In this document: one piece after another, positions 6,627-55,111 of the stretch
Position numbering within the stretch: position 1 is the first letter of the stretch
Layout of the letters: every line of letters begins with the position of its first letter
DNA from: Longimicrobiales bacterium
Lineage (GTDB): Bacteria > Gemmatimonadota > Gemmatimonadetes > Longimicrobiales > Gaopeijiaceae
Length of the DNA stretch: 64,000 bases
Direction: 5' to 3'
Assembly: GCA_965202985.1 (NCBI GenBank)
Contig: CBDBCF010000001.1
Coordinates: 2,208,001-2,272,000 of the forward strand
Notes under the pieces: generated by a model
The model's database searches: none
What the model was told of the DNA's origin: nothing
The model's input: the letters and a program-made list of their open reading frames with translations, nothing else
Program-made: the position numbers and the translations under genes

Positions 6627-8159
6627 CTAGCCGTCCCGCCGCCACTCCTCGGCGTAGGTGCGGCCGAAGCGGTCCAACGCTTCCACCACGACCGACCGGG
6701 GCGCGCCGGAAGGTCTGTCCGCCAAGCGAGCGCGGAACAGGTGATCGGTGGGCACGGGGTCCACCCACGGGCGACGAGACGGCAGGTCCGGTCCCGCGTG
6801 AAGGTTCAAGCTCAAGGGATCCGGCGCGGTCTCCCGAGTCATGGCCCCCCGGGGCTCGCCGTCCGCGAACCAGCGGACCGTCCACTCGGCGTCCCAGTCC
6901 CAAACGTTGGCCAGCAGGTCGTCGGGTGCCGCGGGGTCGGCCCCCGGCGGATAGACCCGCATCTGATGGGTCGTGGGCTGGCCGACGGTCTTGTATCGCC
7001 ACGTGACCTCTTCGCCGCGGATCTCGTAGACGCAGTAGCCGTTCGGCGTTCCGTCCCAGCAAATGGGACCGCTCCACCAAGCGCCGGACACGGCCCCGGT
7101 CACATGCTCGTGGATTCCACGCCCGAACAGATGCTCGGACTCGTGAAGGTGGCCGGCCAGCACGTGGGCGCGGAACGGTTCCAAGAGCCGATAAAGGGCT
7201 TCGCGGTTGGTGATCGCGGAACCTGTGCGCGGCGACTGTTCCCCGCGCCGGGCGTAGTGGCTTCCCAGGACCGGAATGTGCAGCGCCACGATCACCGGCG
7301 ACCCGGCCTCGATGCGGGCCAAGTCCCGCTCCAGCCACGTCAGCGCGTCCCGGTCCAGGTACCCGATGTAGCCGTTGCCGTGCCAGAACACGTCGTCCAG
7401 CACGACGTAGTGAACGGCGCCTCGGTCGAACGAATAGTTGCGAGGGCCGAAGCGGCGGCAGAACGTCTCGGTGGACGCTTCGTCCGTGAGGCCTGTCCGA
7501 TCCAGGTCGTGGTTCCCGACCACCTGGAAGAAGGGGACCCCGATGTCCTTGACGCCCCGCTCGTAGTCGGGGTACAGAGCCAAGTCGTCGTACATGATGT
7601 CGCCGCACGCGATCCCGAATGTGGGTGTGTCGCCCAGCGCGCGGACGGTGCGCGCCAAGTCGGGCACGGACTGCTCCAGGAACCAGTCCATCTCCCGCCG
7701 GTCCTGGGTCTGGATGTCCGCCAGCACCAGCATGGCATGGTTGTCGTGCGAAACGGGGTCCGGTTCCAGGTCGAACTCGGCCGTCTGTTCCGGCGCGTTC
7801 GTCAACTGCCGATAGAAGCGCGCAGTCCCCGTCGCGTTGGTGGGAATTCGGTATCCGGACGGACAACAAAACCACACGAACCGCCGGCTCGCCGTGGTCG
7901 CGATCTCGAAAGTGCCCCCGCCGTCCGTTTCTACGACCTGCAAGCCGTCCGAAACGGCCACGCCCGGCACTCCTCGACCCATCGATCGCACGACACCCCG
8001 CACCCGAACCGGCGCGTCGGCGGCCCGTCGCCCGTACGCGCTCGCCCACCCCGCCCACGGCGCGTACGGGTCGGCCAGCAACCGCCCGGGGTCGAGAACG
8101 ACACCGGCGATGCCCGCCGCGCCGGCCCTGACGAAGGCTCGCCGAGATGGAATGCGCAT
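6627..8159 (-). CDS. Tat-exported calcineurin-like metallophosphoesterase
   Basis: SRRAFV Tat motif; ADIQ, GDIMYD, GNHD, HIP, GHLH motifs; W..DGTPNGY C-terminal motif. Confidence 0.85.
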   Translation of the reverse strand: MRIPSRRAFVRAGAAGIAGVVLDPGRLLADPYAPWAGWASAYGRRAADAPVRVRGVVRSMGRGVPGVAVSDGLQVVETDGGGTFEIATTASRRFVWFCCPSGYRIPTNATGTARFYRQLTNAPEQTAEFDLEPDPVSHDNHAMLVLADIQTQDRREMDWFLEQSVPDLARTVRALGDTPTFGIACGDIMYDDLALYPDYERGVKDIGVPFFQVVGNHDLDRTGLTDEASTETFCRRFGPRNYSFDRGAVHYVVLDDVFWHGNGYIGYLDRDALTWLERDLARIEAGSPVIVALHIPVLGSHYARRGEQSPRTGSAITNREALYRLLEPFRAHVLAGHLHESEHLFGRGIHEHVTGAVSGAWWSGPICWDGTPNGYCVYEIRGEEVTWRYKTVGQPTTHQMRVYPPGADPAAPDDLLANVWDWDAEWTVRWFADGEPRGAMTRETAPDPLSLNLHAGPDLPSRRPWVDPVPTDHLFRARLADRPSGAPRSVVVEALDRFGRTYAEEWRRDG

Positions 8160-40414: not shown

Positions 40415-43225
40415 ATGACAAACCGTGACGACAGATGGCGCCGGACGGCGGCATCGCCGACGCAGACGACGGGAGCGTTCGCTTGGCTGGCGGCAGCGAT
40501 GGTGCTCGCCGTGGGCGCCTTGCTCTTGGCCGGTGGCCCGCGCGTGGCCGCCCAGCAGGTCCCCACGCCCGAATCGGTGCTGGGCCACCGGGTGGGCGCC
40601 GACTTCCACTTGACCACCTTCGAGGAGTCGATCGAGTACTTCGAGCGGCTGGACGGGGCCAGCGACCGGCTGGCGCTTCGGCAGGTGGGGCGTTCGTCGT
40701 ACGGGCGGCCGGTGTACATCGCGCTGATCTCGAGCGCCGAAAACCTGCGCAACGTCGAGCGGCACCGGGAGATCGCGCGGCGGCTGGCCCATCCGAAGGG
40801 GCTGACCGACGACGAGGCGCGGGCGCTGGCCGCGGAGGGCAGGGCGATCGTGCACATCGACGGCGGGCTGCACTCGACCGAGGTCGCGCACGCCGAGCAC
40901 ACGATCCAGCTGGCGCACGACCTGGTCGCCGGCGACGACGACGATCCCGAGATCAGGGCGATTCTGGACAACGTGATCCTCATGCTCTGGCCGTCGATCA
41001 ACCCCGACGGGCAGACGATGATCACCGAGTGGTACCGGTCCAACCTGGGCACGCCCTACGAAGTGGCGTCGGCGCCGTTCCTCTATCAGAAGTACGTCGG
41101 CCACGACAACAACCGGGACGGGTACATGATCAACCAGATCGAGTCCCGGATGGCCACGCGGGTGACGCGCGAGTGGGAGCCGCAGATCCTTTACAACCAT
41201 CACCAGAGTTCGCCGTTCCCGACGCGGATATGGATTCCGCCCTTCGCGGAGCCGATCTCTCCGCACGTGCATCCACTCATGTGGCGAACGGTCAACTTGA
41301 TCGGCATGTCGATGGCGCAGGCGCTGGAGGAGCGCGGCCAGAAGGGCGCCACGCACATGGGCACGGGCTTCGACAACTGGTACCCGGGCTTCATGGACCA
41401 CGCGCACAACTTCCACAACGTCGCGTCGTTCCTGACCGAGACGGCACTGTACCGCTACGCCACACCGCACTTCTACACGATAGGGGACTTTCCCGGGAAC
41501 ACGCGGGAGCTCCGCCCCCAGTCCCTCTACAGCAGCCCCTGGGAGGGCGGCTGGTGGCGGCTCCGGGACGCCGTGGACTACATGCTCACCGCGTCGATCT
41601 CGGTGCTGGACGTGGCGGCCAAGTACCGCACCGACATCTTGTACAACCGCTATCAAGCGGGGCGAGACGTGATCGCCCAGTATCGGGAAGAGCCTCCGTA
41701 CGCGTTCTTCGTTCCCCAGGACCAGCGGGACCCGGTGGCGGCGGTGGAGATGCTTCGGCGCTTGGCCTACAACGGCATCGAGGTGCACCAGCTTGCCCAG
41801 GGACTCGAGTTCGAAGGGATCGCGCATCCGGCGGGGACCTGGGTGATCCCTATGGACCAGGAGTTCGCCAACTTCGTCCGGCAGCTCTTTGCGGTGCAGG
41901 AGTACCCGGACCTGCGCCAGTATCCGGAGGGGCCGCCCGACCAGCCCTACGACGTGTCGGGGTGGACGCTGCCCTACCTGATGGGCGTGCGCGTCGTCGA
42001 GGCGGCGTCGCCGTTGACCGAAGACGTGCGCGACGCGATGAGCGCGCTGGTCGGCGAGCCCCTTGCTTGGGACGCGGAGGTGGAGGACGCTGCGCCTTTC
42101 GATTCCCCCCCTGGGGTCGGCTTCGACAGCCATCCCGTGGCGACGGCGATCGTGCCTCCTGCCGGGAACGCCGGGAGCGGCGGCGGACTCGTGGCGGACC
42201 CGGCGCAGAACAACGCCTTCAAGGCGCTCAACCGCGCATGGGCGAGCGGGGGACAGGTGCGGTTCGTGCCGGGTGCGGGCGGCGAGGGCGGGGCGGCCGG
42301 CAGCTCGGGGCGGTACGTGATCGCGGGGCTCTCGGGAGCTGCTCGGAGCGCGCTGGCGTCGGAGCTGCACTTGCGGCGCGCGGAGGGCGGCACCGGTGGC
42401 CGGTCGGGGGTGGATCTGCCCCGTCCCAGAGTGGGCCTCTACCGCCCGTGGGACCCGTCGATGGACGAAGGCTGGACGCGCTGGCTGCTGGAGGCCTACG
42501 ACTTCGAGTTCTCCAGCTTGTACAACGCCGAAGTGCTGGCGGGCGATCTTCGGGAGCGCTACGACGTGATCGTCTTGGCCGACATGCGCGCCGGGCGGAT
42601 TCTGGAAGGCTTCGCCAAGGGATCGGCGCCTCCGCGCTACGCGGGTGGCATTGGCAGCGAGGGAGTTCGCGAGCTGGACGAGTTCGTGCGTGGCGGCGGC
42701 ACGCTGGTGGCGCTCAACCAAGCCAGCTTGTTTGCTGTCGACCAGCTTCGCCTGCCGGTCGAGAACGTGGTGGCGGAACTGGAGCCCGCCGAGTACTTCA
42801 TGAGCGGATCGATCCTGGAGATGGAAGTCGACCCGTCGCACCCCGTCATGTCCGGGATGCCCGCGCGGGCCAAGGTCGTCGTGGAGCGAAGCCCCGTCTT
42901 CACGACCAAAGAGGACTTCGATGGGGCGGTCTTGGCCAGGTACCCGGAGGATCGGTCGCCCTTGCTTTCCGGCTACTTGCTGGGGGAAGAGCATGTGCAG
43001 GGGTACGCCGCCGCCTTGGACGTGGCGCACGGAGATGGACGCGTCGTCCTGCTGGGCATGAAGCCCCAGTGGCGCGGCCAGCCCTTCGGCAACTTCCGAA
43101 TTCTGTTCAACGCGCTGCTGTACGGCGCACCAGTCGCAGGCGTCGCACCGTCGAATCCCGACTTCTGGAAGGTCCCGGACGGAGACGAAGCCTCTGCCGA
43201 AGAAACGTCCAACGACGAAGCTTGA
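40415..43225 (+). CDS. Secreted M14-family zinc carboxypeptidase with C-terminal GATase-like domain
   Basis: GLHSTE, INPDG, HDNNRD, YNHHQ; C-terminal MDEGWTRW, FVRGGGTLVA. Confidence 0.85.
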   Translation: MTNRDDRWRRTAASPTQTTGAFAWLAAAMVLAVGALLLAGGPRVAAQQVPTPESVLGHRVGADFHLTTFEESIEYFERLDGASDRLALRQVGRSSYGRPVYIALISSAENLRNVERHREIARRLAHPKGLTDDEARALAAEGRAIVHIDGGLHSTEVAHAEHTIQLAHDLVAGDDDDPEIRAILDNVILMLWPSINPDGQTMITEWYRSNLGTPYEVASAPFLYQKYVGHDNNRDGYMINQIESRMATRVTREWEPQILYNHHQSSPFPTRIWIPPFAEPISPHVHPLMWRTVNLIGMSMAQALEERGQKGATHMGTGFDNWYPGFMDHAHNFHNVASFLTETALYRYATPHFYTIGDFPGNTRELRPQSLYSSPWEGGWWRLRDAVDYMLTASISVLDVAAKYRTDILYNRYQAGRDVIAQYREEPPYAFFVPQDQRDPVAAVEMLRRLAYNGIEVHQLAQGLEFEGIAHPAGTWVIPMDQEFANFVRQLFAVQEYPDLRQYPEGPPDQPYDVSGWTLPYLMGVRVVEAASPLTEDVRDAMSALVGEPLAWDAEVEDAAPFDSPPGVGFDSHPVATAIVPPAGNAGSGGGLVADPAQNNAFKALNRAWASGGQVRFVPGAGGEGGAAGSSGRYVIAGLSGAARSALASELHLRRAEGGTGGRSGVDLPRPRVGLYRPWDPSMDEGWTRWLLEAYDFEFSSLYNAEVLAGDLRERYDVIVLADMRAGRILEGFAKGSAPPRYAGGIGSEGVRELDEFVRGGGTLVALNQASLFAVDQLRLPVENVVAELEPAEYFMSGSILEMEVDPSHPVMSGMPARAKVVVERSPVFTTKEDFDGAVLARYPEDRSPLLSGYLLGEEHVQGYAAALDVAHGDGRVVLLGMKPQWRGQPFGNFRILFNALLYGAPVAGVAPSNPDFWKVPDGDEASAEETSNDEA

Positions 43226-43230
43226 CGGAC

Positions 43231-45720
43231 ATGGTCCTGCCGCTACGAAAGCGCCGGCGCGGTTCCGAGTGCCCAGCGCGGTTGGGGCTCTGCCTTGCGA
43301 CGACGGGGCTCGCCGTCCTTGCCTGCGACAGCCCCACGGAGCCCCGGCCCGCGGCGGCGGCGCCCGCGACGTTGGCGCCCGCGGCAACTCTGGCCGGCGA
43401 CCATGTGCCGGGCGGGCGGATTCGCGTGTCGCCGGCGCGAGCCGCCTTCTTTCGGCGGAGCGGCGACGCGGTACAGCGCTTCGCCTTTGCCGCGCAGCTG
43501 CTTGATTCGTCGGGGGTGGCCGTCGCGCTTCCGGGTCCGATGGCGTGGACGATCGCGGGAGACGGCGGGTCCAGGCTTGCGGGACAGGGGCTGTCTGCCG
43601 ACCGACTCGCGGCGACGGCGGAGACGGAGTCCGTTGTCAAGGGACGCGACACGCTGACGGCGCGCCATGGATCGGCGTCGGGGCGGGCGACCGTCACCAA
43701 CTGGGATTGGCTGGAGAGCAGGTGGCAAGGCCGCGACTGGGTCCGTGCGGGCGGGTCGAGCTGCATCGTGGTTGCGGTCGCGGACCGCGCGGGGACCGCG
43801 GTGCCCCTGTCGGTGTTCCACGACCTGCACGGCGCGTCCCTGGCGCCCGAGACGGCGGAGCTGGACTCGATTTCGCTCGTTGCCGGCGCCGACTCGGCAC
43901 GACTGTGCGTCCGCGGACGGCAACCGGGGTCGGCCGGCCTCGCCGTGTCGGCTTGGGACACGACGACCTTTCGCTACGCGGGGAGCTGGCGGCGCCACCA
44001 CGTTCTCGCAGAACCGCTGACGCTGCGGTTTGCGGCGGACGAATGGGAGCTGGGCGTCGGCCAGGAGGAACCGCTGGCGTTGCAGACGAGGGGCAGCCAA
44101 GGGAACGCGGGAACGGCGCCCGCCTCGGAGGCGTCCGTGTCGTCGTCTCGCAAGGCGGTGGCGGAGATCGCGGAAGCAGGCGGCACGGTGGTCAGAGGCG
44201 TGGCCTCGGGCTCCGCGACCCTGTCGGCCTCGTACGCCGGCCTGGAAGCGCAGGCCCACATGGAAGTGCACGAGATCGTGGCAGTGCGCACGGGGGGCGG
44301 CGTCACCTGCGTTCTGCTGCGTCGGGGGACGCTGCGCTGCGCCGGCGAAGAGGGCCGCCTGCTCGGGTATGGGCGGGAGCGGACGGAGGGCGTCCTGTTG
44401 TTTCCCGACGCGCCGGACATACCGATGGGAGAGAGTCCGCTCGTCGACCTCGGGCGGGGAATGGCTAGCTACTTCGCGTGCGCCGTCCACGCGAACGCCG
44501 ACGTCCATTGCTGGGGCGCCGGAAGGCGCGGCCAACTGGGCTACGGCGACGGCCGAAACGTGGGCCGGTTCGAGACGCCCGCCGAGAAGGGACCCGTGCC
44601 CGTGGGGGGACGGGTGCGAAGCGTCGGCGTTGCGGGCGACCACGCGTGCGCGGTCATGGAGGGGTCGGGCGCGGTGCGGTGCTGGGGGGACAACACCGCC
44701 GGGCAGCTGGGCTACGGGTCCCTGGAGCCGGCGGTGGGAGACGACGAAACGCCGGCGTCGTTCGGCGATGTGCCGCTGGGCGGCAGGGCGATCCAGGTGG
44801 CGGGCGGTCGATTGCACACGTGTGCGCTGATGGAAAACGGCCGGGTTCGGTGCTGGGGGCTTGCCGGCGAGAACTGGGATCTGGCGAACGGAGAGCTGAT
44901 CGGCCGTTCCTACGGGCTCGGCTACGGCGATCGGTTCCCTCACGACGAAGCCCTTGGAGACGACGAGACGCCGGCGTCCGTGGGCGACCTGCCCCTGCCG
45001 GGACGGGCGGTGAAGATCTCCGTCGGGGGCTACCACACTTGCGCGCTGATGGCTCAGGGGACGGTCCGGTGCTGGGGTTCCGCTTGGTGGGGCGTCCTGG
45101 GCGACGGCGAGCGCGGCGCCCAACTGGACCACGTCTATGACGCCGCGAACTCGCCGGAGCTTGGGTTCGAGTCGCCCGTCGTCGACCTCGCGTCGCACTA
45201 CTTCCACAACTGCGCGCTCCTGGCCAACGGCTCGGTGCGCTGCTGGGGAGGCGGAGACCAGGGCGCGCTGGGCTTGGGACACGAGCGAAATATCGGCGAC
45301 GACGAGCCCGCGACGAGCGCGCCGCCCGTGCCGCTTGGAGGTCCCGCAACCGCCCTGGCCGTTTTCTACAAGGGAGGCTGCGCCGTGATGCGGGCCGGGG
45401 GCCTGCGCTGCTGGGGCAACCCCCGCGGGCTTGGCTTCACCGGCGTGCAGCTGGGCGACGACGAAGCGCCCGCAGAGGGCGGCGACGTTCGGGTCTTCGC
45501 AGGACCGCTGCGGCGAGAATCGGGCAGCTTGCAGGCGAGCCGCCTGCTTGTCGCGACGGCGGGCGAGGCGACTTTGACGACCGTGCTGTTCCGAGACCAC
45601 GGCCCGCTGGTGCGGCGGCAACTTGACCTCGGCTTGCGGCGCGGTCCGCTGTTCGGTCCCGAAGGCGTGCTCTCCGCAGACTCCCTGCCGCCGTCGTCTT
45701 CGTGGGTTCGCGCCAAGTGA
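43231..45720 (+). CDS. Lipoprotein with Ig-like (BIG2) domain and RCC1-like repeats
   Basis: VLACDSPTEP lipobox; SSSRKAVAEI..VRGVASGSATLSA; repeated HTCA..G.VRCWG..GQLGYG..GDDETPAS. Confidence 0.8.
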   Translation: MVLPLRKRRRGSECPARLGLCLATTGLAVLACDSPTEPRPAAAAPATLAPAATLAGDHVPGGRIRVSPARAAFFRRSGDAVQRFAFAAQLLDSSGVAVALPGPMAWTIAGDGGSRLAGQGLSADRLAATAETESVVKGRDTLTARHGSASGRATVTNWDWLESRWQGRDWVRAGGSSCIVVAVADRAGTAVPLSVFHDLHGASLAPETAELDSISLVAGADSARLCVRGRQPGSAGLAVSAWDTTTFRYAGSWRRHHVLAEPLTLRFAADEWELGVGQEEPLALQTRGSQGNAGTAPASEASVSSSRKAVAEIAEAGGTVVRGVASGSATLSASYAGLEAQAHMEVHEIVAVRTGGGVTCVLLRRGTLRCAGEEGRLLGYGRERTEGVLLFPDAPDIPMGESPLVDLGRGMASYFACAVHANADVHCWGAGRRGQLGYGDGRNVGRFETPAEKGPVPVGGRVRSVGVAGDHACAVMEGSGAVRCWGDNTAGQLGYGSLEPAVGDDETPASFGDVPLGGRAIQVAGGRLHTCALMENGRVRCWGLAGENWDLANGELIGRSYGLGYGDRFPHDEALGDDETPASVGDLPLPGRAVKISVGGYHTCALMAQGTVRCWGSAWWGVLGDGERGAQLDHVYDAANSPELGFESPVVDLASHYFHNCALLANGSVRCWGGGDQGALGLGHERNIGDDEPATSAPPVPLGGPATALAVFYKGGCAVMRAGGLRCWGNPRGLGFTGVQLGDDEAPAEGGDVRVFAGPLRRESGSLQASRLLVATAGEATLTTVLFRDHGPLVRRQLDLGLRRGPLFGPEGVLSADSLPPSSSWVRAK

Positions 45721-48371
45721 CGCGGACGCGGCGCGGCTGGACCTGGGCTTCGGCAGCCGCAACGCTGGCCACAGGAGGGTGCGGCGACGGAGGCGCGGGT
45801 CCAACCGATCCGCCTTCGCCGCCCCAGGTGGCGCGGATCGAGCTCTCCGCTGGCGAACCCGACGAGCACGTCGTCGGCGACACGGCGGCGGTCACGGCCA
45901 GGGCGCTCTCGGCCGCGGGCGTCGGCATCGGCGGAACGACCGTCCGCTTCTCCGCCGGTCCAGCCTCTGGACACGTCTACCCCGAGTCCGCCGTCACCGG
46001 CGCCGACGGCGTCGCCCGCGCATCGTGGGTGCTCGACACCATTCCCGGCGACCAGACGCTCACGGCCACGGCAGGCGCCGTCTCGCAACGCCTCCAAGCG
46101 ACGGTGACGCCGGGTCCCCCCGCCACGCTCGCGGCGGACACCACAAAGCTTTCGGGGTCGCCCGGGTCGCCCACGACCCAGGCCCCAGTAGCGTGGGTGC
46201 ACGACCGCTTCCGAAACCCCGTCCCCGACGTGCCCGTGAGCTTCTCCGCCTCGGAAGGAAGCTCGGCCAACCCGGCCCAGGCGCTCACCGGAGCGGACGG
46301 GCAGGCAACCACGGTGTGGACGCTGGGTCCCGATCCGGGCGACTACACGCTGACGGCAGAGGTGGCGGGCGTCGGCGGCGTGGAGTTCCTGGCCACGGCG
46401 TACGGCCGTCTCCTGGGGGTCCTGGGCGACACGCTGGTCGTGACGTCCGCGGACACCGCGTTCGTGCTTCCGGTGGTCGCGCCCCCGGAGCAGGAGTGGA
46501 CGGTCCGCGTGATCGACGAAGCGCGTTGGCTGCAAGACGAACCGGTGCTGGAGGTGAAGCGCAGCGCGGACTCTCGGGGCGTCGAGATGCGGGTCCGGTC
46601 GCCCTCTTTCGCCCGGATCGTCGTCGAGACGGTGGAACAGAGCGACGAGCTGGTCGTCGTGGTGGCGCTGCCGAGGCCAATCGTGACGGCGGTGCACCAA
46701 GCGAACTGGCCCGACAGCTCCGACGCCGTGCTCCGCGGCTATCACTTGGATCGCGTGCCGCTCCCCGCCATTCAGGTGGACGGACAGCCGGTGCTGGCCT
46801 ACGGCGACAGCGCCGAGATCGTGATCCGCCCGCCGTTCTTGGGCGACGGCGCCTGCTCCGGGCCGGCGGCCGCCCCCGGCAGACTGTCCGTCGTCGGCGC
46901 GACGATCGCAGCCGAAACCGTCGTCATGCGCGCCGCAGGACCGCTGCTTTCCCTGGCGACGGGCGAGTCGAAGCGCTTCGACGCCAACGACGAGTGCCTT
47001 CGGATCCTGACGCCGCCCGGTGCCCGGTTCGCCGTCGCCAGCGTGGATCGCACCTACATCGACCAGTCGCGGGAAGAGCCGGAAGCCCTCACCTACGCAG
47101 GGCACCCGGTGTACTCCATCTTCGTGGCCGACAGCACGCCGAACGCCGGCTGGTCGCCCGCCCCGCGCCAAGCGCAGCAGCTGCACTTGCACGACTTGCT
47201 CGTCGACCGGCCTCCCGACGTCCGCGTGCACAACCTCGCGGCGGCTGTCGGCATTGCCGCGAACGTGTACACGCATCCCGATCCCTACGTGGTGGGCGAC
47301 GAGTTCGAGTGGTACACCAACAACAGCAGCGAACGAACGGGGACATGGCAGGTAATGGCCCTCTACCCGCCCAACGTCGCGCTGGCGGTGTTCAAGGACG
47401 ACCTGCCGGCCCTGTGGAACGACGCGCGCAAGGCAGCGATGGACTCTCTGTTCATGGAACTCGGGTCGGACGCAGTCCAGGACATGTACAAGAACGTCTT
47501 CGGTCCCGATCCGCCGGCCACGAGCCCCTCCACCAACCAGATGCTGGTGATGTTCCACGACGGCGAAGACGGCGAGGGGACCGGCGTCAACATCCCGTCG
47601 CGGATCGACCATCGCTACTCCACGATTCACTTCCGGCGGGTCCATTTTCAGGACGACAACGGATGGTATCGCACGCTGGTGTCGCACGAGTTCGCCCACG
47701 CTTGGCAGTTCCGCAACTTGCAGGCCTTCTCCGCCGTTTGGAGCACGGAGGGGATCGCCAACTTCTTCGCCGAAGAGTTCGTTCGGGTCGCGGCCGGGCT
47801 GTCGCTGGATGCCAACGTGGACCCTGAACGGCGCGTGGACGGCTGGTCTTGGAGGATGCCCTGGAGCGGGTCCTTCGCGAGCGGCTACCGGGAAAGCCAT
47901 CCGTTCCTTCGGTTCCTGGTCGAGCGGTTGGTGCTGGGCCACGGCCGCAGCTACGAGTCGGCGATTCGCCGGGTGATTCGCGGCGCCGCCGAAGGATGGC
48001 ACGGGCGCCACTTCGTCGAGTGGGGCGCGTGGGATAACTCCCGGCAAGGGCGGGGCCTAGTCGACTACATGCAAGAAGTGGTGCCCACCTGGGACCCGGT
48101 GGAAGCGCGCCTCGACTGGATGCTGTCGATCGCGTTGGACGACCGCGCACCGGGTGCCGGGTACGACTTCCCGTTCGTTCACGAGGCTTGGCAGGTCTTC
48201 GGCCCGCGAACGGAGCTCCGGCTGGGCGACGGGCGGGAGGCCTCGATACGGGCCACGCGCGGCGGCAACGGCTACTACGTGCTGAACGGCGGAAGCGAAA
48301 GCGCCAGCGTGCGCCTGAGCGTCGTGTCGGGCGAGGCCGATGTGGCGTGGAAGATCGTGCGCTTTCGGTAG
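45717..48371 (+). CDS. Lipoprotein with Big_1 Ig-like domains and a HExxH zinc metallopeptidase domain
   Basis: TGGC lipobox; two TGADG.A...W.L Big_1 units; SHEFAHAWQ...EGIANF; GTGA overlap with the upstream stop (alternative start 45702). Confidence 0.75.
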   Translation: MTRTRRGWTWASAAATLATGGCGDGGAGPTDPPSPPQVARIELSAGEPDEHVVGDTAAVTARALSAAGVGIGGTTVRFSAGPASGHVYPESAVTGADGVARASWVLDTIPGDQTLTATAGAVSQRLQATVTPGPPATLAADTTKLSGSPGSPTTQAPVAWVHDRFRNPVPDVPVSFSASEGSSANPAQALTGADGQATTVWTLGPDPGDYTLTAEVAGVGGVEFLATAYGRLLGVLGDTLVVTSADTAFVLPVVAPPEQEWTVRVIDEARWLQDEPVLEVKRSADSRGVEMRVRSPSFARIVVETVEQSDELVVVVALPRPIVTAVHQANWPDSSDAVLRGYHLDRVPLPAIQVDGQPVLAYGDSAEIVIRPPFLGDGACSGPAAAPGRLSVVGATIAAETVVMRAAGPLLSLATGESKRFDANDECLRILTPPGARFAVASVDRTYIDQSREEPEALTYAGHPVYSIFVADSTPNAGWSPAPRQAQQLHLHDLLVDRPPDVRVHNLAAAVGIAANVYTHPDPYVVGDEFEWYTNNSSERTGTWQVMALYPPNVALAVFKDDLPALWNDARKAAMDSLFMELGSDAVQDMYKNVFGPDPPATSPSTNQMLVMFHDGEDGEGTGVNIPSRIDHRYSTIHFRRVHFQDDNGWYRTLVSHEFAHAWQFRNLQAFSAVWSTEGIANFFAEEFVRVAAGLSLDANVDPERRVDGWSWRMPWSGSFASGYRESHPFLRFLVERLVLGHGRSYESAIRRVIRGAAEGWHGRHFVEWGAWDNSRQGRGLVDYMQEVVPTWDPVEARLDWMLSIALDDRAPGAGYDFPFVHEAWQVFGPRTELRLGDGREASIRATRGGNGYYVLNGGSESASVRLSVVSGEADVAWKIVRFR

Positions 48372-48444: not shown

Positions 48445-48855
48445 TTATGATTTTGCGGCCAGCGTCGTGCTCTCCACCGTGCGCGACTCCCACCAAGCCG
48501 CTCCCACTACCCCCGCCAACGTGGTCGCCGCAAGCGGCAGAAGGTTTCCCTCGGCCCCCACAGTGCCTGCCACCAGGGTAATCGTCACCACCGTCAGTCC
48601 GCCGAGGAGGCCCGTCACCCCGATCTCCCAGGGCTTGGCGCGCGCTCGTTTCTCGAGCCAAAGCGCGGTGACTGCGTCCATTGCCAGCTGGCTAACGCGC
48701 TCGGGCACTTCGGTGGCGCGCACGTCCTCGACTTCCTTCAAGACGCGGAGCAAGCGACGGCACTCGTCGCACTGCGCCACGTGGTCCGAAAGCCCGGCAA
48801 CCGAGCGCAGGTCGAAGGCGTGATCGACGACTTGGTCGAGGCGTGGACAAGTCAT
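48445..48855 (-). CDS. Zinc-binding anti-sigma factor (ZAS) with two TM helices
   Basis: HVAQCDEC matches HxxxCxxC; ATGA overlap with the ECF sigma gene. Confidence 0.75.
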   Translation of the reverse strand: MTCPRLDQVVDHAFDLRSVAGLSDHVAQCDECRRLLRVLKEVEDVRATEVPERVSQLAMDAVTALWLEKRARAKPWEIGVTGLLGGLTVVTITLVAGTVGAEGNLLPLAATTLAGVVGAAWWESRTVESTTLAAKS

Positions 48856-49403
48856 GGTCTGAACTCCGGCAATCGCTTGGCCAGCTGCTTCGCGGCGTGA
48901 CGCACGTTGGACCTCACCGTACCGGGCTCCACGCCGAGAAGCTCCGCCGCTTCCCGGGTGCTGCGGGACTCGACGTGGACGAGGTGAAAGGCTTCTCGCT
49001 GTGCCTTTGGGAGCGCTTGAAGCTCCTCGATCACGCGCTCTCGAAACTCGCTCCTTTCCGCTTGGGTCAGCGGATCGACCGTCTGGTCGACGGGCTCCGA
49101 CTGCGGGGGAAGGTCTTCCAGGTCCATCAGACGGTGGGCCTGCCGCTTGCGAGCTCGAATCTCCATGAGGCAGGCGTTGCGGGCGATGCGCCCCGCCCAG
49201 GCCGCAAAGCTGCGGCCCCGACGTAGCGCCTTCCGCTGCTTCCAGATCGCGATCCACACTCGCTGATATAGCTCCTCCGCCCAGTCCGCGTCTTGTTGGA
49301 ACGAAAGAATGACGCCCATCAGGAACCCCCTGTGCCGACGGTTCAACTCGCGAAAGAAGGCCGGGTCTCCGGCCCGGAACAGTGCCAGTTCAGAGTCGTC
49401 CAT
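48852..49403 (-). CDS. ECF RNA polymerase sigma factor
   Basis: Region 2 AEELYQRVWIAIW..SFAAWAGRIARNAC; region 4 LPKAQREAFHL..EAAELLGVEPGTVRSNV. Confidence 0.85.
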   Translation of the reverse strand: MDDSELALFRAGDPAFFRELNRRHRGFLMGVILSFQQDADWAEELYQRVWIAIWKQRKALRRGRSFAAWAGRIARNACLMEIRARKRQAHRLMDLEDLPPQSEPVDQTVDPLTQAERSEFRERVIEELQALPKAQREAFHLVHVESRSTREAAELLGVEPGTVRSNVRHAAKQLAKRLPEFRP

Positions 49404-50211
49404 CCTCCATCTGGTACGGCCCGGCCGAGCGTTGCGCAACGCTCCGGCGACGCGCCACAAGAGCCAGGAGGCCGATCTGGACTGCTGGCGCCAGCAGCGG
49501 CGCCCACGCCGCGACGATCCCGGAGACGGTTTCCCAATCCCGGTTCGATCCTTGTGCCAGCAACATGGCGACGACGAGGGCGAGCGTGCCGGCCAGAGCC
49601 ACCGACCACCGCATGCGGCGGCGGGTTCGCGGGCCCGTCCCGGCGGTCGCCCGACCGAGCAGCAGGCCCGCGAAGGTGTTGAGAAGCGCCACCGCCGCTG
49701 TGGCCGCCGGCAGGTGAAGGAAGAGGACGAGCCTGGCCGGATGCGCCCTGTCGGGGTGCTCGATGGACAAGCTGTATTCGGCGGGCGGGTGTTCCCGCAC
49801 GTACTCCAGGTTCCGCAGAATGCCTGCCGGCGTCTGGATGCCAAACATCTCGATGTCCTTTCCGTATCGGTCTCCCCACGCGAACCCGGCGTACTCCGCC
49901 AGCGGTGTGACCAGGGCCGACATGACGTAGGTCGCAACGGCCAGGATCAGTCCGGCGACCGCGGCTGCACGAAAGCGGCGGCCCCGAAATCCAGCCAAGC
50001 GCAAGCCGCCGGCGACCGCGGCGAAGGCGAGCACGCCGGCGGCGTTGCTGGTCGCGGCTTCGATCAGCCACCAGAACGGTCGCAACCCGGCCCGCGCAAT
50101 GTGCTGGACCAACAGAAGCGCCGTGGCCGTCGCCGTCCACGCCATCGTGGACTTCAGAGCCTGCCAGACGCCGCTGCGGACTCTGAGCGGCACCGTGTCT
50201 TCTTCGCTCAT
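49390..50211 (-). CDS. Polytopic membrane protein, weakly LptF/LptG-like
   Basis: About 6 hydrophobic segments; YVMSALVTPLA and LHLPAATA..GLLLG resemble YjgP/Q helices; family call is tentative. Confidence 0.5.
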   Translation of the reverse strand: MSEEDTVPLRVRSGVWQALKSTMAWTATATALLLVQHIARAGLRPFWWLIEAATSNAAGVLAFAAVAGGLRLAGFRGRRFRAAAVAGLILAVATYVMSALVTPLAEYAGFAWGDRYGKDIEMFGIQTPAGILRNLEYVREHPPAEYSLSIEHPDRAHPARLVLFLHLPAATAAVALLNTFAGLLLGRATAGTGPRTRRRMRWSVALAGTLALVVAMLLAQGSNRDWETVSGIVAAWAPLLAPAVQIGLLALVARRRSVAQRSAGPYQMEDGRL

Positions 50212-50215
50212 GGCG

Positions 50216-50407
50216 CTAGTTGGGCATGCATCCGCCGCAGCCGGAGCCGAGGAAGCAGCAGTTCCGGCAGCAGTACGCCCCCGGTCCGCCGCCCCTGCAG
50301 CAATCCTCCCACAGGCTCGCGACGGGCTGCCTCTGTACCGTCGCGAAGACCGCAGCGGCCAGCACGACGTTCAAGACGATCAAGCCGACGATCATGATGC
50401 TACGCAT
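50216..50407 (-). CDS. Secreted cysteine-rich peptide (63 aa, 8 Cys)
   Basis: RBS AGGAGG; hydrophobic N-terminus; core CCRGGGPGAYCCRNCCFLGSGCGGC; stop is 4 nt from the next ATG. Confidence 0.75.
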   Translation of the reverse strand: MRSIMIVGLIVLNVVLAAAVFATVQRQPVASLWEDCCRGGGPGAYCCRNCCFLGSGCGGCMPN

Positions 50408-50446
50408 GGTTCCTCCTGTTGTCGAGTGTACGGAAAGTAGTGGCCT

Positions 50447-50983
50447 CTAGCCGGATCCCATCGCCATCCAGAGAGCGTCGGCGACTTGGGAGACTCGGTT
50501 TCCGGGTCCGGCAGCAACCGCCCTGCCGTTTGCGCTCACAGCGAACACCCACGGGCTTCGGCGAACGACGGCCCACACGGACGTCTCCGGTCCACTGGCC
50601 GCATCGGCTTGGACCGTAAGGACCGGCACGGGCCACCCGACTGCTGTGGCGTATGCCGAGGCCGTCGCCTGTCTGGACGCCGACAGCGCGACGACCCTGA
50701 GGCTCGGGTCGGCGTGGCGAAGCCAGTCGTGCCACAAGGGAGCTACTCGTCGCGTGTGCACGCACTCCGGGTCGAAAACGAGCACCAGCAGAGGGCCCAT
50801 GGCGGCAAGTTGCTGCTGCCTGCCCTCGGCGTCCGTCGCCAAGACTCTCGACAGGTCCGCCGACGGCAGCGAAGGCGGCTGGGCGGGCGACACGTCGTCG
50901 AGGCGTAGCACGACAAGCACCGTCGCCTGGATGGCGGCGACAACGGTCAACGCTAGGGCGAGCGCCCTGGTCTTCGGCCTCAT
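50447..50983 (-). CDS. Membrane-anchored thioredoxin-fold (TlpA/redoxin-like) protein with CxxT
   Basis: N-terminal TM; LLVLVFDPECVHT..W; cis-Pro-like SPWVFAVSANGR; ATGA overlap with the ECF stop. Confidence 0.65.
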   Translation of the reverse strand: MRPKTRALALALTVVAAIQATVLVVLRLDDVSPAQPPSLPSADLSRVLATDAEGRQQQLAAMGPLLVLVFDPECVHTRRVAPLWHDWLRHADPSLRVVALSASRQATASAYATAVGWPVPVLTVQADAASGPETSVWAVVRRSPWVFAVSANGRAVAAGPGNRVSQVADALWMAMGSG

Positions 50984-51546
50984 CGGTCGTGGGCCACTTC
51001 GCGCAGCTTCCTGCGCAGAGTGGCGTGAGCCCGGCAGAGGTCCGATCTGACTGTGCCCTCCGGGCGGCCGACGGTCGCCGCGATCTCCTTGTGGGACATG
51101 TCCCTGAACCACCGGCAGATCACGACCGTCCGCTGGGTGCCCGGCAGCTCGTCGACGGCTCTGCGGATGTCCACCTTCAGGAGGATCGCGTCCTCGGGGT
51201 GGCCGGTGTCGCTGGCCGCCGGCGAAGCGTGCGCCTCCAAGAGGGAGGACTGGCGGGCGTGCTTTCTCGCCTCCTGCAGGCCCACGTTGCAGACGAAGCC
51301 GACCAGCCACGCACCTGCCGCTTCGGGGTCTTTGAGCGTCTGGAGCGCGTTGTAGGCGGCTATGGAAGCCTTTTGGACGAGGTCCTCCGCTCCCACCGAC
51401 CCGTGGGCGTAGCGAGCCGCCACAGAGAGCATGCGGGGGCGGTGGGTCTCGAGCCAGTTCCCGAAGGTGTGGTCGTCGGGGCTTTCGGCGGGCCGGTCCG
51501 GCGGCGGCCCGGTTCTCGGTTCGGAAGAGCGGCGCGTGGTACCCAT
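50980..51546 (-). CDS. ECF RNA polymerase sigma factor
   Basis: AEDLVQKASIAAY..LKDPEAAGAWL; LPGTQRTVV..MSHKEIAATVGRPEGTVRSDL. Confidence 0.85.
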   Translation of the reverse strand: MGTTRRSSEPRTGPPPDRPAESPDDHTFGNWLETHRPRMLSVAARYAHGSVGAEDLVQKASIAAYNALQTLKDPEAAGAWLVGFVCNVGLQEARKHARQSSLLEAHASPAASDTGHPEDAILLKVDIRRAVDELPGTQRTVVICRWFRDMSHKEIAATVGRPEGTVRSDLCRAHATLRRKLREVAHDR

Positions 51547-52075: not shown

Positions 52076-52630
52076 ATGAGAGAGATCGTCACCAAGATCG
52101 CGGCAATCTTTCTGGTCGCAACACTGGCCGGCGTCCCGGCCGTCGCGCCGATCGAGGCCCAGCCCTCGTCGTCGGAGGACCATTTCCGGACCGGCCAGCC
52201 CGCCTCGCCGAGCTTGGTCGTCGCGGACGCGTCCTGGCAGAAGGAGGTCGACGAGGTCGGCCGTCCCAACAGTCTCGCCTACGCTTCACCTCCGGCGATC
52301 GGCTTTCCACTGGTCCCTACGACCGAAGCCGAGAGGTTGCGGCTCGCGGTGGCCGTGTGCCTAGCCAAGATGTCGCCGAGTGGCGCCGAACACGTGTTGC
52401 GGTCGTTGCGGGCAGGGGCATGGACCTCGGCCGTTCGAGGCATGCAGGACGAAGACGAGGGCGAAACCAACGTGACTTGCACGGGCGAAGAGGCCACCGT
52501 GACCATCACGTCGGACTCGGTGCGAGCTTGCGTGACCAACGGGGAGTGCGCCGGCACGATCAACGGACATGGGGTGCACATGAAGTCCAGTGGCACGGTT
52601 TGCCTAACCATCGATCTCGAGCCGAGCTGA
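52076..52630 (+). CDS. Secreted hypothetical protein with a C-terminal 4-Cys beta-rich domain
   Basis: RBS GGAGG; signal peptide ending PIEA; acidic DEDEGE followed by a Thr/Val/Cys-rich tail. Confidence 0.65.
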   Translation: MREIVTKIAAIFLVATLAGVPAVAPIEAQPSSSEDHFRTGQPASPSLVVADASWQKEVDEVGRPNSLAYASPPAIGFPLVPTTEAERLRLAVAVCLAKMSPSGAEHVLRSLRAGAWTSAVRGMQDEDEGETNVTCTGEEATVTITSDSVRACVTNGECAGTINGHGVHMKSSGTVCLTIDLEPS

Positions 52631-52636
52631 CCGCCA

Positions 52637-53752
52637 ATGGACGCCAAACCAACCGTGGCGACGAACCCCGTCGCCGGTCGCGGGTCCTGGATCCCCCGAT
52701 GGCTGTTGCTGGTCGGCGCCTTGACGATGGGGTCCCCGGCGGGCACGGCCTGGGCGAGCCAGCAGCAGCAATCGTTCAGCCTGCCCGTGTCCCTTCCCGA
52801 GCCGCCCGACGAACTCCTGGCGGCGTGCGATCTGGAGCGGTCGCCGCTTGCGCTCGAAGTCGTGGCGAGTTCGGTGGAGCACTATCCGACGCTGGCGGAG
52901 CGCACCTCCAGCGGCTGGCTCGTTTACGACCGGTACTCGGACCAGGTGGTGGAGCTGGACAACGACCTTCGGGAAACAGCGCAATGGGGTCGCAAGGGTC
53001 CGGGTCCCCTCGAGTACCGGGGCACCGTGCCAGGGTTCGGACGGACGGATTCTGGCGGCACCTTCGTCGTGGACGACTCGCCGCCGTCCGTCATGGTGTT
53101 CGGAGCAGCGAAGGAGGAGCACCGCCTGGACGTGACCCACCGGTTGCATCATGCCGTTAACGCAGGCAACCGGTTGCTGCTGGCCTCTGCCCTGGGTATC
53201 CACGGGACCACTCTGGCACCTGTGGACGAGGTGACGACGGAATGGAGCCGGGAGGACCTGGGGGTCGCCGTCTACGACGACGGCCAGCCTCCTCGTTTCC
53301 GGTTGCGCAGGGGCGGCGACGGGTTCCTGTACGCGGCCACGACGACTCAGTCGGCGATCTTCCTGCTGAACGGGGAGGCCGCGCCCCGGAAAGTGGTCCA
53401 GCGGTGCGTGCCCAAGGCGTGGCGGGAAGTGCATCGGAAGGCGCCGGTGTTCGAGAGCGGTCCTTTCAAGGGACACGGATACTCGATGCAGACGCTCGCC
53501 GACTACGCGGTGCTCGCGAGCGGCCGCGTGCTTGCGCTCGGCACGCTGGCCGCCAGCGGTGACGGGCACGTTTCCGTCGAACTGTACGACGCGAGCGGCG
53601 AGATGGTTCGGGCGTGGGAGCTTCCCTTGGCGACGTCGCAGGCGATGTTCGACCCGTACAACCCGCGCCGTCTTCTGGTGTGGGGAACGTGGAAAGGAGA
53701 CAAGCATGTTCGACTCGTCGAGGTCGAGGGCGATGACTATCCGTCGTCGTAA
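52637..53752 (+). CDS. Secreted beta-propeller protein (6-bladed/NHL-like), paralog 1
   Basis: Signal peptide; WGRKGPGPLEY (GRxGxGPxE motif); ELYDASGEMVRAW. Confidence 0.7.
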   Translation: MDAKPTVATNPVAGRGSWIPRWLLLVGALTMGSPAGTAWASQQQQSFSLPVSLPEPPDELLAACDLERSPLALEVVASSVEHYPTLAERTSSGWLVYDRYSDQVVELDNDLRETAQWGRKGPGPLEYRGTVPGFGRTDSGGTFVVDDSPPSVMVFGAAKEEHRLDVTHRLHHAVNAGNRLLLASALGIHGTTLAPVDEVTTEWSREDLGVAVYDDGQPPRFRLRRGGDGFLYAATTTQSAIFLLNGEAAPRKVVQRCVPKAWREVHRKAPVFESGPFKGHGYSMQTLADYAVLASGRVLALGTLAASGDGHVSVELYDASGEMVRAWELPLATSQAMFDPYNPRRLLVWGTWKGDKHVRLVEVEGDDYPSS

Positions 53753-54803
53753 CGTGACCGCGCTTCTTCTTGTTGCGGTCGCGGCAGGGTCGGGAAGCGC
53801 CGGCGTCAGCGACGCGGCGGCTCTTCAAGCGCCAGGCGCGCCCCCGCCGTTTCGTCCGCCGGAAGCGCTCGTTACGGCCTGCGAAATGGAGCGTTGGCCG
53901 CTCACGGTCGAGGTCGTCGCGACTTCGACTGCACACTATCCGCGTCACGCGGAACGCGTCCCAGGCGGTTGGCTCGTCTACGAGCGGTACGACCAACAAG
54001 TGGTGGAGCTGGACGACGACCTTCGCGAAGTAGCCCGATGGGGTCGCAAGGGGCCGGGCCCGCTGGAGTACCGCGGCAACGTGCCAGGGTTCGGCCGGAC
54101 GGAGTCGAGCGGCACCTTCGTCGTGGACGACTCGCCGCCGTCGGTCATGACGTTCGGCGCGACGGGAACGGAGTACCGCCTGGACGTTCCAAGACCGCAT
54201 CACGCTGTCGCCGTGGGAGGTCGGTTGATGCTTGCGTCGTCTGCGGGGATCCACGAAGCGACGATCACGGGCGACGGAGCGGGCGCAACGGCGTGGAGTC
54301 ACGAGGACCTGGGAATCGATGTCTCCGAAGACGGCAAGCCTTCGCGTTACTTGCTGCGCAGCGGCGACGGCTCCGTCTACGCGGCGGCCACGAGCCAGTC
54401 GTCCATCTGGGCATTGAGCGGCAAGGACGCTCCCCGCAAGGTGGTTCAGCGTTGCGTGCCCAAGGCATGGCAAGAGATGCATCGGAAGGCGCCCGTGTTC
54501 GAGCGAGGTCGGTTCAAGGGACAACGGTACTCGTTGCGAACGCTCGGTGACTATGCAGTCCTCGACGAGGGGCGTCTGCTTGCTCTCGGTACACTGCACA
54601 CTAACGCCGACCTGCACAGCTCGCTGGAGCTGTACAACGCGGACGGAGAAATGGTGCGGGCGTGGGAGATTCCTATGCCGTCGTCGTCTAGAAAGGTATT
54701 CGACCCCTACAACCCGCGCCGTCTTCTGGTGTGGGGACCATGGAAAGGAGAAGAGCATGTTCGACTCATCGAGGTCGACGGCGAGAACTATCCGTCGTCG
54801 TAG
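53706..54803 (+). CDS. Secreted beta-propeller protein, paralog 2 (alternative start 53733)
   Basis: Colinear with paralog 1 (WGRKGPGPLEYRG, GTFVVDDSPPSVM, PRKVVQRCVPKAW, FDPYNPRRLLVWG); AAAGGAG upstream of ATG 53706. Confidence 0.75.
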   Translation: MFDSSRSRAMTIRRRNVTALLLVAVAAGSGSAGVSDAAALQAPGAPPPFRPPEALVTACEMERWPLTVEVVATSTAHYPRHAERVPGGWLVYERYDQQVVELDDDLREVARWGRKGPGPLEYRGNVPGFGRTESSGTFVVDDSPPSVMTFGATGTEYRLDVPRPHHAVAVGGRLMLASSAGIHEATITGDGAGATAWSHEDLGIDVSEDGKPSRYLLRSGDGSVYAAATSQSSIWALSGKDAPRKVVQRCVPKAWQEMHRKAPVFERGRFKGQRYSLRTLGDYAVLDEGRLLALGTLHTNADLHSSLELYNADGEMVRAWEIPMPSSSRKVFDPYNPRRLLVWGPWKGEEHVRLIEVDGENYPSS

Positions 54804-55111
54804 CGCTGTAGCGATCTTCTTCGTCGCCGCCGTGGCAGGATGGGAAGCCATCGCCGGTAGCACGGAAGAGGCGCTCGGCGCCGTCGGGACGCTAGCGGCA
54901 GGCCCCGAGACGGACGTCGAGCCAGAGTCGCAGGGAGACTGCTACGACTTCGGCGTGCTGCCTGACGGCGTCTCGATCGAGGGTTGCTGGAACTGCGACA
55001 AAGGACGTCCACTGGGGCTGGTCGTTCTGGTGTGTCGACGTCACGCTTTCTTGCGATGACGGCGAAGGCAACTCGCTCGAGATCGACATCACGGATGTGG
55101 GACTCTGTTGA
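54757..55111 (+). pseudogene. Secreted 6-Cys small protein with an apparent +1 frameshift near 55000
   Basis: AAAGGAG then ATG; leader homologous to that of paralog 2; removing one A from gacaaaggac gives CWNCDKDVHWGWSFWCVDVTLSCDDGEGNSLEIDITDVGLC*. Confidence 0.55.

Follow-up and report, generated by a model that had tools for sequence, protein, structure and literature searches.

What does a 63-residue open reading frame with eight cysteines encode in a Longimicrobiales bacterium, and which genes belong with it? The frame lies at 50216..50407 on the minus strand of the window, by which we mean the whole stretch of 64,000 nucleotides analyzed here, and translates into 63 amino acids followed by a stop codon. 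A sequence-only reading had described the product as a toxin-like or metallothionein-like exported peptide, lying next to a candidate thiol-disulfide enzyme. Several elements of that description are borne out. The strong ribosome-binding site is an AGGAGG Shine–Dalgarno sequence at 50417-50412 (feature 50412..50417, minus strand), four bases before the ATG, and the minus-strand translation gives the cysteine framework claimed, CC-x8-CC-x2-CC-x5-C-x2-C, with the eight cysteines of the core lying within 25 residues. The frame has the best codon score among the six frames and a GC3 of 0.90. One sigma70-like site, at 50425-50397, was rejected as a promoter because it overlaps the start codon.

The precursor, P0002, starts with MR and continues with a hydrophobic stretch over residues 4-22. 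Hydropathy analysis gave the signal-like profile that had been proposed for the N terminus, and the peptide is probably exported, with putative cleavage of the leader. The AlphaFold2 model (pLDDT 75, pTM 0.36) has a helix at residues 2-23 and strands at 34-38 and 45-52. The predicted leader helix (residues 1-23; 50339..50407, minus strand) carries a near-invariant Asn13 on an LxxxNxxL face, and the cysteine core (residues 36-60; 50228..50302, minus strand) is predicted with moderate confidence to fold into a single beta-hairpin, 34-38/45-52, a model from which disulfide connectivity cannot be read. As neighboring cysteines in a hairpin face opposite sides, cross-strand bonds are, on this model, more likely than true vicinal disulfides.

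GC-rich DNA yields many cysteine-rich shadow frames: in a DNA-pattern scan of genome contigs, 113 of the 118 matches listed were non-members and at least five were true members, these five coming from two Longimicrobiales, two Gemmatimonadota and one Bryobacterales MAG. That the frame in the window is such a chance product is nevertheless vanishingly improbable and is refuted by the family evidence. A search of all six frames of this genome for a loose form of the framework yields five occurrences, in comparison with 0, 0, 0 and 0 in four genome-size surrogates generated as fourth-order Markov sequences, and all five occurrences are paralogues (C1:165620, C1:1890915, C1:2090568, C2:906400 and the window's own). 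A profile of the five retrieved, at E ≤ 0.001 among 1.84 billion representatives, 120 proteins with the same leader and framework; a word-indexed search returned 10 family proteins. Purifying selection and conserved synteny, described below, likewise speak against chance. The peptide is a member of a real, undescribed family of eight-cysteine miniproteins in Gemmatimonadota, which elsewhere comprises at least 120 clusters. One of the paralogues (C2:906400-906933, seen at positions 7401-7934 of its locus, L004) has no stop after the core and extends to 177 amino acids; it is possibly a decaying copy or one that lost its stop.

The complete cysteine pattern was present in 120 of 128 candidate members, mostly with spacings of 9/2/5/5 (48 candidates) or 8/2/5/5 (33), the 8/2/5/2 of the window being found in 7. 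In an alignment of 106 full-length members, from which fragments, frameshifted and over-long sequences were excluded, the eight cysteines, an even number, were invariant in 106 of 106, and the homologues conserving the framework that the first description had called for thus exist. Other positions were strongly conserved as well: Asn13 in 98%, Leu16 in 83%, Leu9 in 72%, Tyr or Phe45 in 93% and Trp52 in 70% of the members. The loops vary widely between subfamilies in the alignment. Among close homologues, seven pairs, a small sample, gave a dN/dS of 0.25 overall, 0.32 for the leader and 0.25 for the loops, with no cysteine changed. The cores have a mean charge of −2.4 and are net negative in 79 of 104 members. 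Among 104 leaders, a lipobox was found in one and a Tat motif in none, and many members carry P-A-x-(T/A/S)-Q after the helix, with P in 42%, A in 38% and Q in 30% at 11, 12 and 15 residues after the asparagine.

The distribution of the family is patchy. In a sample of the phylum, 21 of 301 genomes gave matches: 15 of 47 in the bacterium's own taxonomic family and 5 of 125 in one other family, the rest having none. The five out-of-family matches are weak, three containing internal stops, one (L031) being a divergent eight-cysteine relative and one (L030) unclassified. A sample of the own family had the peptide in 15 of 121 genomes. A genome carries up to five divergent copies, and every copy has a partner set of its own. 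Divergent relatives such as L031, L195 (G061) and L215 (G357) resemble the family in the leader or the first CC and have altered cysteine spacing, suggesting a wider superfamily. The peptide of the Bryobacterales MAG (L160), which is labeled as Acidobacteriota, is near-identical to that of a genome from the window's own family (L019/L167) and reflects either transfer between phyla or misbinning.

Searches for known relatives matched the peptide to no characterized family in Pfam, NCBIfam or the PDB. P0002 itself had no match in Pfam; with the 106 members, no Pfam or NCBIfam family matched more than two of them; 50 cores gave no Pfam profile match at E ≤ 1; and neither full nor core-only profiles matched PDB sequences, the core profile being searched to E ≤ 10. 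No toxin in PDB or Pfam was matched. Foldseek against the PDB with the peptide model returned nothing at E ≤ 0.001, which does not prove the fold new, and a wide fold search, with a best Z of 2.6 confined to the leader helix, does not show novelty either. The ESM Atlas gave no usable match for the peptide and one lead at 0.75 for the downstream membrane protein, results that show neither novelty nor absence. The 20 members looked up were named nothing more than "hypothetical protein". A search of the openly accessible literature gave no paper on the family. The portion of a marine Gemmatimonadota study covered here mentions ranthipeptide clusters and not this family (PMC11651109), and the biosynthetic gene cluster tables in its supplements could bear on prior annotation; the covered portion of a conotoxin review does not spell out framework patterns (PMC11860864).

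The resemblance to toxins and metallothioneins fared less well. There is no sequence match, the cores are mostly acidic, the loops are under purifying selection and the leader is of an export type, and the label "toxin-like" is weakly supported. The first description does not mention the downstream genes of the module, which encode a membrane protein of LptF/LptG fold, an ECF sigma factor and an anti-sigma factor. On the minus strand the order is ECF sigma factor 1 (50980..51546), a thioredoxin-like protein (50447..50983), the peptide, the membrane protein (49390..50211), ECF sigma factor 2 (48852..49403) and an anti-sigma-like protein (48445..48855), adjacent genes overlapping or lying apart by 4 to 39 bases; the stop of sigma factor 1 overlaps the thioredoxin start (ATGA) and the membrane protein begins 4 nucleotides after the peptide stop. 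The anti-sigma protein, putatively zinc-binding and with two C-terminal hydrophobic segments, has no Pfam match and is one that we take to be ZAS-like; its motif C..HxxxCxxC is invariant in 25 of 25 sequences.

To describe the neighborhood we used 42 loci, left from 45 after removal of two weak matches and one tandem duplicate. They come from related genomes, most of which belong to one family, and also served as the source of the partner HMMs, so the following counts are not independent: the thioredoxin lies within 3 kb of the peptide in 36 of 42 loci; the membrane protein lies within 3 kb in 38, directly following the peptide on the same strand in 33 and missing nearby in 4; and one or the other is present in all 42. 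An ECF sigma factor is found within 3.5 kb in 34 loci, a zinc-type anti-sigma factor in 24, an AraC-type protein in 16 and a propeller-like gene within 3 kb in 34. Two loci carry a PAS sensor kinase, a response regulator and a DrrA-type ABC transporter instead, the only two at which an ABC transporter was seen, and transposases occur at several. In this genome, all thioredoxins of the subfamily (4 of 4), all short (2 of 2) and long (3 of 3) membrane proteins and both anti-sigma factors of the subfamily are at peptide loci. Among 33 and 71 neighbor proteins scanned, the latter drawn from a list of 90 plus core genes, we found no radical SAM, MNIO or other maturase. The MNIO family (DUF692, PF05114) had 0 matches in this 92%-complete genome, a Caulobacter control being positive. 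Neither a metal-resistance gene cluster among the neighbors nor an LptB-like ATPase cluster at the peptide loci was recurrent. SD-like words precede the peptide in 29 of 42 loci.

The thioredoxin-like protein is the tightest partner of the peptide. Starting from the thioredoxin instead, we found a peptide no more than 1.4 kb away at 19 of the subfamily's 23 loci, or at 15 of 19 once this genome is set aside; the other four of the 23 comprise one degenerate peptide, one contig edge and two weak matches. The protein is membrane-anchored, with an AhpC-TSA/TlpA-like thioredoxin fold; its best PDB profile matches are at approximately 4e-6, and AhpC-TSA is matched in 3 of 9 members. The first cysteine, the PW motif and a glutamine in the anchor (Gln19) are invariant among 25 members. 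The thiol-disulfide enzyme of the sequence-only reading is thus upheld in its fold and as a conserved partner and qualified in its chemistry: the window's site is CVHT, with a single cysteine and not CxxC, and the second cysteine, present as CxxC in 6 of the 25, is Ser or Thr (CxxS/T) in 19.

The downstream membrane protein was modeled confidently (pLDDT 92) as six helices with no strands, an LptF/LptG transmembrane fold without the beta-jellyroll. The top Foldseek rows are LptF/LptG with a probability of 1.0 and a TM score of about 0.6, at weak E-values of 0.02-0.09 (best 0.019), and PF03739 is matched by 26 of 89 members at E ≤ 0.1, the best at 6.6e-7. A homologue bears the name Gemmatimonadota. 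As the canonical LptF/G pair is encoded elsewhere in this genome (C2:725808-728233), a role as the LPS exporter is ruled out. Asn178 is invariant. The long and short types of the protein are homologous (hhalign 92-93%), and the leaders follow them: a proline five residues after the asparagine marks 13 of the 14 long-type loci and none of the 24 short-type ones, a match that may reflect shared descent. Long-type loci usually encode, as regulators, an AraC-type protein together with a sigma factor. We do not claim the long type to be a short type fused to an anti-sigma factor, the hhalign similarity (40%, 35 columns) being weak.

The membrane protein also occurs alone with its regulators. The peptide is directly upstream in only 11 of 23 short-type loci, and most others keep the sigma and anti-sigma factors; the LptF/G-fold protein, the ECF sigma factor and the zinc-type anti-sigma factor form a unit conserved even without the peptide, which may be a new ECF signaling group in its own right. 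At an orthologous locus of the same genus (L210; G001:C1:3346722-3350453), sigma factor 1 is joined to the membrane gene, with neither peptide nor thioredoxin, and the receptor-like core therefore needs no peptide in cis. In another genome (L199, G003) a propeller gene takes the place of the peptide and thioredoxin. A third locus (L206:2250-2731) has, 5′ of the membrane gene, a leader-like ORF without the cysteine core and a truncated thioredoxin, apparently a decayed module.

Further genes with exported products surround the module. A divergent plus-strand cluster at 52076-55059, with no Pfam match better than E 0.01, encodes a secreted 184-residue protein with five cysteines, two similar propeller-like proteins (52637-53752 and 53691-54803) and a small secreted ORF with four cysteines. 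Downstream of the module, at 40415-48371, lie genes for large proteins predicted to be exported, among them an RCC1-repeat protein (43282-45720) and a Big_1/Ig-like protein with an HEFAH metallopeptidase-like motif (45702-48371). At L170:6628-9603 (G196) the peptide and thioredoxin are tandemly duplicated around a propeller gene, the two peptides being identical. Our own gene caller found 91 propeller-like genes in this genome, and small signal-bearing cysteine-rich ORFs lie within 2 kb of a propeller in 11 of 17 cases in comparison with 110 of 846 small genes overall. At least 11 unrelated small secreted cysteine-rich ORFs lie beside propeller genes. The peptide family thus belongs, as a single branch, to a wider group of exported cysteine-rich miniproteins, distinguished within it by the triple-CC frame and the regulatory module. 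The propeller proteins are candidate alternative binding partners of the peptide.

On the reading frame, its family, purifying selection, the conserved neighborhood and the folds of two partners, all of them observed, we base a mechanism that we favor tentatively, at somewhat less than an even chance: an exported, disulfide-locked miniprotein, folded with the one-cysteine thioredoxin, acts on the LptF/G-fold protein and so feeds an anti-sigma/ECF switch. The peptide would be exported by Sec and its leader cleaved; the core would fold into a four-disulfide miniprotein and not into a metal-thiolate; and the CxxS/T thioredoxin would aid this folding as an isomerase or chaperone. The folded peptide may then serve as a ligand or accessory subunit of the neighboring membrane protein, which would relay the signal to the anti-sigma factor and its ECF sigma factor. 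Three membrane helices carry invariant polar residues, Asn13 of the peptide, Gln19 of the thioredoxin and Asn178 of the membrane protein, and these suggest that the leader could be recognized inside the membrane. A categorically new peptide–receptor–sigma pathway of Longimicrobiales, in which Asn/Gln contacts in the membrane recruit a miniprotein whose CC-CC-CC-C-C frame is undescribed, with a private thioredoxin and an LptF/G-derived receptor releasing an ECF sigma factor from a zinc anti-sigma factor, is in our view less likely than not; if it exists, the paralogous modules would provide each cell with several orthogonal channels. Alternatively, the role of the regulators may be confined to expressing the peptide.

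This last arrangement is part of a different explanation, in which the peptide would be exported as an effector, either antimicrobial or directed at a host or neighbor, and would rely on its dedicated thioredoxin for maturation as pediocin does on PedC. The membrane protein would then be an immunity protein or stress sensor, and the sigma factors would control expression only. The thioredoxin being the tightest partner, as oxidoreductases are in the bacteriocin clusters covered in part of a published account (PMC4919988), is in its favor, together with the patchy distribution (15 of 121 family genomes), the several paralogues per genome, the transposases and the wide differences between the loops of subfamilies. 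Mostly acidic cores, constrained loops (in the seven close pairs), ABC exporters of DrrA type at only two loci and the lack of a toxin match in PDB and Pfam make it, nevertheless, unlikely. Eight cysteines in 25 residues and an acidic core could describe a periplasmic metal-thiolate chelator, metallothionein- or bufferin-like and induced by metal or redox conditions through the ECF/anti-sigma pair, which the one-cysteine thioredoxin would keep reduced or repair. A zinc-type anti-sigma and ECF sigma adjoin the peptide much as SigF/NrsF adjoin bufferins in the portion of that work covered here (PMC11626156). We regard a chelator as distinctly unlikely: neither this genome nor the neighbors scanned have an MNIO, no metal-resistance cluster recurs among the neighbors, exported thiols would meet an oxidizing compartment with VKOR, which this genome encodes, and the fixed cysteine spacing and the aromatics at positions 45 and 52 appear to fit a folded hairpin better.

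The explanation closest to the favored signaling mechanism, with which it overlaps, leaves the leader uncleaved, the peptide being a single-pass membrane microprotein whose asparagine helix packs into the LptF/G-fold protein and whose cysteine knot is a periplasmic redox switch. The LptC helix packs into LptB2FGC in an analogous manner. A polar residue conserved at 98% in a hydrophobic helix would be unusual for a disposable signal peptide, and the leader dN/dS (0.32) and the match between leader and membrane-protein types are in keeping with a retained helix. The P-A-x-(T/A/S)-Q motif resembles a signal peptidase I site in many members, however, and many loci encode the membrane protein and no peptide; we consider an uncleaved leader quite improbable.

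The signaling model is testable with four or five small genes. The family supplies at least 120 naturally occurring versions of a small scaffold, probably held by four disulfides and absent from the libraries searched, together with a likely folding helper, and an LptF/G-fold protein appears to be used without ATPase or jellyroll in a sigma/anti-sigma module. If the membrane protein is the receptor of the peptide, the module would be a new trans-membrane signaling route in a barely cultured phylum; should the peptide prove to be no more than an effector, exported and served by its own oxidoreductase, the scaffold would still be new and the logic known.

Known systems share some features with the peptide and differ from it in others. 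Metallothioneins are cytoplasmic cysteine-rich proteins without an export signal, whereas a hydrophobic leader is conserved across this family. Granulin is a stack of beta-hairpins cross-linked by paired cysteines, and conotoxins have hypervariable loops under positive selection. Paired cysteines, the CC-x8-CC spacing, a predicted hairpin and a conserved leader joined to a cysteine frame recall both, but no profile matched either (50 cores against Pfam at E ≤ 1; PDB sequences at E ≤ 10), the peptide sits in a bacterial operon, and its loops are under purifying selection, with the low loop dN/dS, from a small sample of close pairs, running counter to conotoxins. Class II bacteriocins combine a cationic mature peptide with a dedicated ABC exporter, and the family has neither, given its negative mean core charge and an ABC transporter at two loci only.

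Bacteriocin clusters such as those of pediocin PA-1 with PedC, sublancin with BdbA and thermophilin with BlpGst encode a dedicated thiol-disulfide oxidoreductase according to the part of the source covered here (PMC4919988), and a disulfide peptide co-encoded with an exported thioredoxin-fold protein is common to both systems. Their oxidoreductases are of CxxC type in the same part of that source, whereas most here are CxxS/T; the leader here is signal-like with an invariant asparagine, the core is mostly acidic, no peptidase-ABC exporter recurs, and ECF regulators are adjacent. Bufferins, as far as the covered portion of their description goes, are Sec-exported cysteine peptides that bind copper beside SigF/NrsF, and they share with our module a small cysteine-containing precursor, whose signal is here putatively of the Sec type, and a nearby ECF sigma factor, anti-sigma factor and membrane protein (PMC11626156). 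The peptide differs in its genome lacking MNIO (DUF692; 0 PF05114 matches, and none among the scanned neighbors), in having no recurring modifying enzyme nearby, in its eight-cysteine CC-CC-CC-C-C frame and one-cysteine thioredoxin, and in having an LptF/G-fold protein instead of DoxX; as no RiPP maturase was seen, we rejected its assignment as a bufferin or MNIO-modified RiPP. With LptF/LptG (PF03739) the downstream protein shares the six-helix transmembrane fold and differs in lacking the periplasmic beta-jellyroll, in being a single copy per locus and in being tied to sigma and anti-sigma factors. Taken together, the peptide family is new, its module is undescribed, and the logic of the module is a known one.
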